Sequence record: MH051916
Source: Enterobacteria phage vB_EcoM_IME340
DNA: 64,000 bases
Direction: 5' to 3' (one strand)
The notes under the pieces were generated by a model. It was not told the origin of the DNA. It saw only the letters and a program-made list of their open reading frames with translations, and ran no database searches. This document shows positions 45,219 to 48,087 of this stretch, piece after piece. Every line of letters begins with the position of its first letter. Positions within the stretch are counted from its first letter, which is position 1. A program made the translations under genes and the position numbers.

Positions 45219-45764
45219 ATGAGAAAAGCACTACTCGCTGGTCTATTGGCCATTTCAATGATGGCACATAGCTCCGAGCATACTTTCAGTAATGTCCAAC
45301 TCGATAACATGCGTTACGCATATCAATTCGGGGAACAATTTTCTAAGGATGGAAAATATAAAACACACAAAAATATCCACAAGAGTGGATTAGGTCATAT
45401 AATGGCTGCTATTTTATGGCAAGAAAGCTCTGCCGGAGTTAATTTAAAATCTAAACCAAAGCATCATGCCTATGGAATGTTCCAAAATTATTTGCCGACC
45501 ATGCGAGCAAGAGTTAAGGAACTTGGTTATAATATGACCGATGCTGAAATAAAAAGAATGTTGAATAAACGGTCCAATTCAGCTTCCTGGGCGTACATTG
45601 AACTTTCTTATTGGTTAAATATACATAAGGGCGATATAAGAAAGGCAATATCCTCTTATAATTCGGGATGGAATGTTAAAGCAGGTTCTAAATATGCTTC
45701 TGAAGTCCTAGAAAAGGCTAACTACCTTAAAAATAATAAACTGTTGGAAATAGTAAATGACTAA
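45219..45764 (+). CDS. Secreted lytic-transglycosylase-like protein (T4 vs.1 position)
   Basis: 181 aa; signal peptide MRKALLAGLLAISMMAHS; SLT-like motifs ILWQESS, YGMFQNY, SSYNSGWN. Confidence 0.7.
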   Translation: MRKALLAGLLAISMMAHSSEHTFSNVQLDNMRYAYQFGEQFSKDGKYKTHKNIHKSGLGHIMAAILWQESSAGVNLKSKPKHHAYGMFQNYLPTMRARVKELGYNMTDAEIKRMLNKRSNSASWAYIELSYWLNIHKGDIRKAISSYNSGWNVKAGSKYASEVLEKANYLKNNKLLEIVND

Positions 45765-46104
45765 AATTTTGGTTTTATGTATAGGATTAATTTCATTTTC
45801 TGCTTATGCGTCAGCAGATACATCATATACTGAAATTAGGGAGTATGTGAACCGCACTGCAGCGGATTATTGTGGGAAAAATAAAGCATGCCAAGCTGAA
45901 TTTGCGCAGAAATTAATATATGCATATAAAGACGGAGAAAGAGATAAATCAAGCAGATACAAAAACGATACATTATTAAAACGATATGCTAAAAAGTGGA
46001 ATACCCTAGAATGTTCAGTTGCGGAGGAAAAAGATAAAGCCGCTTGTCATTCAATGGTTGACCGTTTAGTAGATTCTTATAATCGAGGATTGAGTACTAG
46101 ATGA
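45757..46104 (+). CDS. vs: Valyl-tRNA synthetase modifier-like secreted protein
   Basis: 115 aa with signal peptide, same length and position as T4 vs. Confidence 0.6.
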   Translation: MTKILVLCIGLISFSAYASADTSYTEIREYVNRTAADYCGKNKACQAEFAQKLIYAYKDGERDKSSRYKNDTLLKRYAKKWNTLECSVAEEKDKAACHSMVDRLVDSYNRGLSTR

Positions 46105-46580
46105 TTGTAAAATATATCAAGGGCGATATTGTCGCCCTCTTTCTTGAAGGTAATATTATTGCGCACGGGTGTAACTGTTTTCATACAATGGGCAGTGGTG
46201 TAGCTGGTCAATTAGCAAGAGCCTATCCCAAAATTTTAGAAATAGATAAAACCACTACTGAGTACGGTTCTCGTGATAAATTAGGCGATATGTCTATTGT
46301 TTTTAAACATAAACCTAATGGGTTTGGCATATGTTATAACTTGTATACGCAATACGAACCAGGTCCTAATCTTGATTATGGTGCTTTAGTAAACTGCATG
46401 ATAGAATTAAATCTACAGGCAGAAACCCTTTTGTTTAAACCGGTAATTTACATTCCACGCATAGGTTGTGGTATTGCTGGCGGCGATTGGGATAAGGTTT
46501 CTAAATTAATCGACATGTTTACTCCTGATATTGATTTAATAGTGGTGGATTATGAAAGTACATTACCCACATCCGTTTGA
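46101..46580 (+). CDS. Macro-domain (ADP-ribose binding/processing) protein
   Basis: 159 aa; macro signatures IKGDIV...NIIAHGCNCFHTMGSGVAGQLARAYP and IPRIGCGIAGGDW. Confidence 0.75.
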   Translation: MIVKYIKGDIVALFLEGNIIAHGCNCFHTMGSGVAGQLARAYPKILEIDKTTTEYGSRDKLGDMSIVFKHKPNGFGICYNLYTQYEPGPNLDYGALVNCMIELNLQAETLLFKPVIYIPRIGCGIAGGDWDKVSKLIDMFTPDIDLIVVDYESTLPTSV

Positions 46581-46764
46581 TCCTAAAAACAAAGCAGTAA
46601 TTATTCGTCAATGGGAACGCATTTGCCGTACTAAATGTCCAATTAATAGTCCACATGATGTAGATAAAGACTACATTGGAACATTCGTTGAATATACATT
46701 TATTGATAAGAAAGGTCGTAAACAGCATGTAGAAGAATACTGCGTAAAGGTGACATGGTTATGA
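46552..46764 (+). CDS. Hypothetical protein
   Basis: 70 aa ORF overlapping neighbours. Confidence 0.45.
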   Translation: MKVHYPHPFDPKNKAVIIRQWERICRTKCPINSPHDVDKDYIGTFVEYTFIDKKGRKQHVEEYCVKVTWL

Positions 46765-46967
46765 GCCAAACTAGTATTCTTAAAAATGCCCACTGTGAAA
46801 AGTGTAAGTGGCCGGTTGTTTTTGCTTTATGTAACGATGAAATGGCTTGTGATTTCGATTATTGGTGCTATTGTTCTAATAAAGGATGCATCAATCATAA
46901 AGGTGAAGGATTTTATTCGGGATTTTATCCTTATCCAGATTTCGTTAAAGAAGGTAAACCGAAATGA
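46755..46967 (+). CDS. Cysteine-rich small protein (possible zinc binding)
   Basis: 70 aa with CEKCKW...CNDEMACDFDYWCYCSNKGC. Confidence 0.5.
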   Translation: MVMSQTSILKNAHCEKCKWPVVFALCNDEMACDFDYWCYCSNKGCINHKGEGFYSGFYPYPDFVKEGKPK

Positions 46968-47137
46968 ATAGTTCTGAGTTACAATATGAAGTGTTACGTG
47001 AACTTGATAATTTAATTGAACTCGCTGTTAATAAAGGTTTTGCCATTGGAATTGGTCAAAAAGATACTGATCATTTAACTGTGGAAATATTTAAGCAAAA
47101 GCGAATTATTTTAAAACTTCTGGAAATTAATATATGA
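46964..47137 (+). CDS. Small hypothetical protein
   Basis: 57 aa ORF (MNSSELQYEVLRELDNLIELAVNKGF...) overlapping the previous stop. Confidence 0.4.
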   Translation: MNSSELQYEVLRELDNLIELAVNKGFAIGIGQKDTDHLTVEIFKQKRIILKLLEINI

Positions 47138-47319
47138 GCCTAAGCAAAGAACAAAAAGACAAACTCTTTTCTCTTATCCACGAAATTATGGATAAAAATA
47201 GTGAATTGGAAAAAGTTTGTAATGAATGCGGTCCTTTTAGCGCAAATGAATATGAAGAACTTTCCAAAGAATTTGATAATAAAGAACAAGAACTCATTGA
47301 TTATATAAATTCCTTATGA
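47134..47319 (+). CDS. Small helical protein, ~60 aa paralog family member
   Basis: 61 aa; shares the pattern EQK..LF.L..EI...G...YEEL with five other ORFs. Confidence 0.5.
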   Translation: MSLSKEQKDKLFSLIHEIMDKNSELEKVCNECGPFSANEYEELSKEFDNKEQELIDYINSL

Positions 47320-47504
47320 TTACTCGCGAACAAAAGAACGAAATATTATTTTTAGTTGGTGAAATTATTAGTTTAGAAAAGGATTTGTCTTTTGAAATAT
47401 CTTCTGAATATGGAGATGCCGAAACATATTACGAATTAGTAAAATCTATCGATAAAGCTGAAAATGATTTAGAAACATATTTAGAAAATTTAACTAAGGA
47501 CTAA
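47316..47504 (+). CDS. Small helical protein, ~60 aa paralog family member
   Basis: 62 aa; paralog of 47134-47319. Confidence 0.5.
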   Translation: MITREQKNEILFLVGEIISLEKDLSFEISSEYGDAETYYELVKSIDKAENDLETYLENLTKD

Positions 47505-47505
47505 G

Positions 47506-48087
47506 ATGGCGAGTTTAATTTTTACTTATGCAGCAATGAATGCTGGAAAATCTGCTTCTCTTTTGACTGCTGCGCATAATTATAAAGAACGTGGAATGAG
47601 TGTATTAGTTCTTAAGCCTGCTATTGATACTCGCGATTCTGTCTGTGAAGTCGTTTCTCGCATTGGAATTAAACAGGAAGCGAATATTATTACAGATGAT
47701 ATGGATATTTTCGAGTTCTATAAATGGGCTGAAGCACAAAAAGATATTCATTGCGTATTTGTAGATGAAGCCCAGTTTTTAAAAACTGAACAAGTGCATC
47801 AATTGAGTCGAATTGTTGATACATATAATGTTCCTGTTATGGCTTATGGATTAAGGACTGATTTCGCTGGAAAATTGTTTGAAGGTTCTAAAGAACTTTT
47901 AGCGATTGCAGATAAACTTATTGAACTAAAGGCAGTTTGTCATTGCGGCAAAAAAGCGATTATGACAGCTCGATTGATGGAAGATGGAACACCAGTTAAA
48001 GAAGGTAATCAAATCTGTATTGGTGATGAAATTTATGTTTCTTTGTGTAGAAAACACTGGAACGAATTAACTAAAAAGCTCGGTTAG
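47506..48087 (+). CDS. tk: Thymidine kinase
   Basis: 193 aa; P-loop MNAGKSASLL and zinc-ribbon cysteines CHCGKKA...C; same length as T4 Tk. Confidence 0.95.
   Translation: MASLIFTYAAMNAGKSASLLTAAHNYKERGMSVLVLKPAIDTRDSVCEVVSRIGIKQEANIITDDMDIFEFYKWAEAQKDIHCVFVDEAQFLKTEQVHQLSRIVDTYNVPVMAYGLRTDFAGKLFEGSKELLAIADKLIELKAVCHCGKKAIMTARLMEDGTPVKEGNQICIGDEIYVSLCRKHWNELTKKLG

Follow-up and report, generated by a model that had tools for sequence, protein, structure and literature searches.

A macrodomain gene between vs and tk.3 of phage vB_EcoM_IME340: orthologue of T4 tk.4 (adfM) and probable counter-defence enzyme against DarT2

A 159-aa protein encoded between vs and tk.3 in the Enterobacteria phage vB_EcoM_IME340 is, by synteny and homology, the orthologue of T4 Tk.4, which has been renamed AdfM. 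Taken as a whole, our reading is that this protein probably counteracts the host factor DarT2 by hydrolysing thymidine-linked ADP-ribose in the way of the macrodomain SCO6735. The anti-DarTG2 function as such is already published for the T4 orthologue, and the finding is thus correct and not new. To the published T4 work we add an apparently lysine-free, glutamine-type active site, the distinction from the DarG-like AdfM of phage PhiKZ and a cassette-like exchange of alleles. All positions refer to the stretch of 64,000 nucleotides of this phage (sequence record MH051916) that was analysed, here called the window.

Genomic setting and macro fold

The window belongs to a Tequatrovirus. Over the 5 kb surrounding the macro gene, it shares 97–98% identity with the Escherichia phages ECP52 and vB_EcoM_G4507, and in 485 phage records the match extends over at least 80% of this 5-kb stretch. 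A preliminary description had placed a 159-aa macro-domain open reading frame (ORF) between vs and tk homologues on the strength of two motifs. Its location (Table 1) and both motifs were confirmed, with KGDIVALFLEGNIIAHGCNCFHTMGSGVAGQLA occupying residues 7–39 and IPRIGCGIAGG residues 118–128. Homologues of regB, vs.1 and vs lie upstream, those of tk.3, tk.2, tk.1, tk, rI.1 and rI downstream. This is the gene order of T4, where the place of the macro ORF is taken by tk.4 with the annotation "phosphatase; contains A1pp phosphatase motif", and a macro gene is likewise found between vs and tk.3 in T4, G4507, IME537 and UGJNEcP4.

The start codon of the macro ORF and the stop codon of vs overlap (ATGA), an arrangement suggesting that the two genes are co-transcribed and translationally coupled, and a Shine-Dalgarno-like GAGGA is found 11 nt 5' of the start. 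At its other end, the final 29 nt of the ORF are overlapped by the tk.3 homologue. The hairpin inside the gene has an RNA folding energy of −14.2 kcal/mol (z −2.3). In phage ECML-123-2, a rho-independent terminator is annotated at the corresponding site. The hairpin may represent a terminator, or an attenuator between vs and tk.4. A promoter scan was uninformative, as 20 sites were found versus 22.6 expected. Further downstream, a 370-bp insertion relative to T4 separates the tk.3 and tk.2 homologues and contains two small ORFs, and the tk.2 and tk.1 homologues are tandem paralogues assigned to the same PHROG.

Table 1. Features at and around the macro gene in the window
Feature	Coordinates	Strand	Description
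vs homologue (valyl-tRNA synthetase modifier)	45757..46104	+	99% identical to T4 Vs; upstream neighbour
tk.4/adfM homologue	46101..46580	+	ATG start; 159 aa; single-domain macrodomain
Key residues of the 159-aa protein			H22, N25, G31-S-G33 loop, Q84, P119-RIGCGIAGG-128 phosphate loop
Hairpin	46120..46138	+	Terminator scan; GC-rich, 8 bp, T-rich tail; 20 nt inside the 5' end of the macro ORF
Divergent cassette	46130..46580	+	Sliding-window identity to T4; identity matrix over four phages
tk.3 homologue	46552..46764	+	94% identical to T4 Tk.3; PHROG 2008; downstream neighbour
Small ORF in insertion	46755-46967		70 aa; Cys-rich, CxxC-type; PHROG 2306
Insertion relative to T4	46766-47135
Small ORF in insertion	46964-47137		57 aa; PHROG 3452
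tk.2 homologue	47134-47319		PHROG 653
tk.1 homologue	47316-47504		PHROG 653
tk homologue	47506-48087		99.5% identical to T4 Tk

The macro signature of the protein, proposed in the preliminary description from its motifs, is far beyond chance. The Pfam Macro profile PF01661 matched with 33.1 bits (cut-off 22, E=6.2e-8) over positions 2–117 of its 118, and PHROG 335 matched with E=1.6e-71. Structure prediction had been named as a check on the macro fold. A single-sequence AlphaFold2 model was unusable (pLDDT 37.4) and was replaced by a run on an alignment of 103 sequences, which returned a three-layer alpha/beta macro fold with a pLDDT of 94.2 and a pTM of 0.89. Foldseek matched this model to TARG1, BT1257, Poa1p and DarG in the PDB, each with a probability of 1.0. 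The high confidence of the model together with these matches therefore identifies the protein as a macrodomain of the ALC1-like class. Its glycine-rich loops MGSGVAG and GCGIAGG are aligned to the loops that contact the ligand in solved complexes, and the protein is predicted to bind ADP-ribose. Its full-length alignment with T4 Tk.4 is gapless and shows 58% identity over 155 aa (E=4e-70), while the closest solved relatives by sequence are SCO6735 and Bacteroides BT1257 (E about 2e-10 to 5e-19).

Published AdfM functions and the predicted reaction

The function of the T4 orthologue was described in a preprint of November 2025, in which a T4 transposon library was screened by HIDEN-SEQ on a host expressing DarTG2 (bioRxiv 10.1101/2025.11.20.689424). 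The single significant hit was tk.4, and its clean knockout rendered T4 sensitive to DarTG2; wild-type and knockout phages were also plated on an empty-vector control. The gene was consequently renamed adfM, for anti-DarT factor, macrodomain. Removal of ADP-ribose from DNA by T4 AdfM was inferred by these authors and not demonstrated, and the need for the gene on DarTG2 hosts was demonstrated only for the T4 allele (10.1101/2025.11.20.689424). Apart from this preprint, we found no literature on the biochemistry of Tk.4. The name AdfM was also given independently, in a 2026 Cell Reports paper, to gp104 of phage PhiKZ, which strips DarT2-installed ADP-ribose from an oligonucleotide in vitro and whose N23A variant shows reduced activity (PMC13309987). 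Reversal of DarT-type DNA ADP-ribosylation, one of several roles considered in the preliminary description, is thus supported by the DarTG2-sensitive knockout of the syntenic T4 gene, to which the allele described here is 58% identical.

For the comparison of catalytic sites, sequences were taken from PDB alignments, those of TARG1 and Poa1p being identical to the PDB chains. A first MAFFT alignment was gapped at the catalytic column, and we used an L-INS-i alignment to which family members had been added. In this alignment, Gln84 of the phage protein (motif NLYTQ) falls into one column with Gln85 of SCO6735, Lys80 of DarG and Lys84 of TARG1; Asn25 aligns with Asn27 of SCO6735 and Asn23 of PhiKZ AdfM, and His22 with His24 of SCO6735. 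H22, N25 and Q84 are invariant in the 103 family members. As judged from the aligned residues, the active-site pattern is lysine-free and of the SCO6735/BT1257 type, not DarG-like.

SCO6735 cleaves the thymidine-ADP-ribose that DarT forms on DNA, at a higher rate than either DarG or TARG1, and rescues DarT toxicity (Hloušek-Kasun et al., PMC9411070). Its Q85A variant is inactive and N27S nearly so, and a water-initiated mechanism which does not involve lysine was proposed by the authors (PMC9411070). By analogy, T4-type AdfM is predicted to be a hydrolase acting on thymidine-linked ADP-ribose in single-stranded DNA. It would be expressed from the pre-replicative gene cluster as a counter-defence enzyme. 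Host DarT2 would ADP-ribosylate thymidines of single-stranded phage DNA (DarT2 proteins are reported to modify the second T of TNTC), and the macrodomain would most likely bind the ADP-ribose and hydrolyse the thymine–ribose bond, so that replicable DNA is restored. The chemistry would probably be independent of lysine, as in SCO6735, rather than rely on a catalytic lysine as in DarG and TARG1: Gln84, held by Asn25, would position the distal ribose, and cleavage would be started by an ordered water. Two differences from SCO6735 concern residues that position DNA. Its Lys34 is replaced by Ser32 in the phage protein, and its mobile loop, which is five residues longer than that of DarG and TARG1 and carries Lys89, is 5–6 residues longer than the loop following Gln84 in the phage protein, which is without this lysine. 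The absence of both lysines would count against the same activity on DNA, as would the weak scores to DarG profiles and the 58% identity to the T4 protein. We infer that the 58%-identical allele should have the same activity as T4 Tk.4 and that catalysis rather than binding should protect the phage.

Alternative explanations

Protection could instead come mainly from binding, either by blocking of DarT2 or by shielding of the modified DNA, but this is unlikely. Such a mechanism would have precedents, because SCO6735 inhibits DarT by direct interaction too, and inhibition of DarT in vitro persists in the catalytically dead variants SCO6735 Q85A, DarG K80A and TARG1 K84A, SCO6735 being the strongest (PMC9411070). 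A hypervariable cassette in a backbone that is 94–100% conserved would also fit a protein–protein interface engaged in an arms race. However, the invariant H22, N25 and Q84 and the glycine loops are active-site residues and not a surface patch, and because the invariant residues are catalytic, DarT2 binding is less likely as the main mechanism. The 159-aa protein is moreover a single domain without the separate DarT-binding domain of DarG, and mutation of the catalytic site lowers the activity of PhiKZ AdfM. By analogy to SCO6735, DarT2 binding is plausible as a contribution to protection. We also give little credence to the view that the substrate is a soluble ADP-ribose derivative, e.g. ADP-ribose-1''-phosphate, O-acetyl-ADP-ribose or an ADP-ribose-based immune signal, and that the DarTG2 phenotype of T4 is indirect or allele-specific. 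This view would fit the common annotation as "phosphatase" and the deposition of yeast Poa1p as an ADP-ribose-1''-phosphate phosphatase, but Poa1p has a serine and not a glutamine at the key position, the Gln-type SCO6735 is a proven DNA de-ADP-ribosylase, and the sole known genetic phenotype of the orthologue is DarTG2-specific. Degradation of Thoeris-type signals likewise received no support from the analysis.

Highly improbable, finally, is a reversal of protein or RNA ADP-ribosylation, be it by trimming of the marks set by Alt, ModA and ModB or by undoing the action of a host ADP-ribosyltransferase toxin. T4-like phages do bring their own ADP-ribosyltransferases, but Alt, ModA and ModB modify arginine, and tk.4 scored only with DarTG2 present; the tuning of these marks suggested in the preliminary description is therefore unlikely. 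The solved relatives of the Gln-type subclass act on Glu/Asp esters and on nucleic-acid ADP-ribose, and we know of no ALC1-like macrodomain that cleaves Arg-ADP-ribose. A role on proteins would find support in SCO6735 and TARG1, which remove Glu/Asp-linked protein ADP-ribose as well (PMC9411070), and in MavL, reported as an arginine-specific macrodomain (PMC10951314).

With hydrolysis of DarT2-made thymidine-ADP-ribose as the preferred reading, tk.4/adfM would explain the resistance of T-even phages to DarTG2 and illustrate an enzymatic phage counter to DNA ADP-ribosylation, as already published for T4.

Exchange of alleles and relation to known macrodomains

Nucleotide identity to T4 amounts to 95–100% in the flanks and falls to 33–78% within the divergent cassette, the drop being confined to the macro gene. 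At the protein level, RegB, Vs.1, Vs, Tk.3, Tk.2, Tk.1, Tk and rI are 94–100% identical to their T4 counterparts. The macro allele is 74% identical to the copy of the Dhakavirus UGJNEcP4 versus 58% to the alleles of T4 and IME537, whereas the flanking regB, vs.1, vs and tk are 97–100% identical to T4 and IME537 and only 46–70% to UGJNEcP4. IME537, itself a Tequatrovirus, carries the exact T4 tk.4 allele. Since the allele is nearer to the Dhakavirus copy than to that of T4 and the flanks show the opposite, the gene behaves as an exchanged cassette, and its discordance with the flanking sequences indicates an exchange between genera. Both versions are widespread: the window allele occurs in 317 phage database records at an identity of at least 90%, and the T4 allele in 224 records at this level and in a further 159 at 80–90%. 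T4 Tk.4 shares with the 159-aa protein the locus, the length class, PHROG 335 and all family-invariant residues, the phage protein described here having four additional residues at the C-terminus.

As all catalytic-site residues are retained, the function is probably conserved across alleles. Such exchange suggests that selection acts on an anti-defence locus, and the variation of the cassette could reflect an ongoing arms race in which alleles are tuned to DarT2 variants, bind the toxin directly or escape a host sensor of AdfM. Alleles swapped between phage genera could set the DarT2 specificity or the host range; mechanism and allele exchange both bear on how the sensitivity of phages to DarTG systems is predicted, for instance in the choice of therapy phages.

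Relatives of the phage protein with 34–43% identity are encoded in at least 565 stretches of species-representative bacterial and archaeal genomes. The best 80 of these loci encode single-domain proteins, mostly of about 150 aa, with an NxYTQ motif. This stand-alone family with the signature HGCNC...NxYTQ is bacterial with few archaeal members and, among the best 80 loci, common in Rhodobacteraceae, Desulfobacterales and Verrucomicrobia. A tblastn search for DarT2 in flanks of up to 5 kb per side of these 80 loci returned chance matches only (E>2), with the limited sensitivity of a single query from P. aeruginosa (PMC13309987). Clustering of the neighbours at the same loci gave no family common beyond closely related taxa. 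An origin as an orphan antitoxin was rejected on these grounds, namely no DarT2 (one query) and no conserved neighbour beside the 80 bacterial homologues. As the stand-alone relatives at these 80 loci showed neither DarT2 nor a neighbour common beyond closely related taxa, T4-type AdfM appears to be a recruited stand-alone macrodomain and not an orphaned DarG.

Among the macrodomains of known structure, SCO6735 and BT1257 (PDB codes 5e3b and 2fg1/2afc) are about 25–29% identical to the 159-aa protein; they are cellular proteins, whereas the latter is phage-encoded. The Lys84/Asp125 dyad of human TARG1/OARD1 is absent from the phage protein, which has Gln84 and Ala126 at the aligned positions. 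Yeast Poa1p carries a serine in the Gln84 column as well as a long insertion; of its residues probed by deposited mutants, His23 corresponds to H22 and is conserved, Ser30 corresponds to T29, and Phe152 corresponds to A126 and is not conserved.

DarG of T. aquaticus and M. tuberculosis (PDB codes 5m31 and 5m3i) is characterised by a catalytic lysine in an FPTK motif and a C-terminal DarT-binding domain, both of which are absent from the 159-aa protein. DarG profiles matched this protein with 27.8 bits (NCBIfam NF048014, cut-off 250) and 27.7 bits (PADLOC), and T4 Tk.4 with 30–36 bits, versus 133–138 bits for PhiKZ gp104. Membership in DarG was rejected for the phage protein because of the weak profile scores and the lack of Lys80, of the second domain and of a darT partner. 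PhiKZ gp104 has the FPTK lysine and resembles DarG, whereas T4 Tk.4 is of the Gln type; profile scores and FPTK difference therefore assign the two phage AdfM proteins to different macrodomain subclasses. We tentatively propose, while regarding it as somewhat short of likely, that T4-type AdfM arose by independent recruitment of a stand-alone, lysine-free bacterial Gln-type macrodomain rather than by capture of DarG and now circulates as an exchangeable cassette. If this is true, erasers directed against DarT2 evolved in phages at least twice and from different macrodomain subclasses, DarG-like in PhiKZ gp104 and Gln-type in T4 Tk.4.
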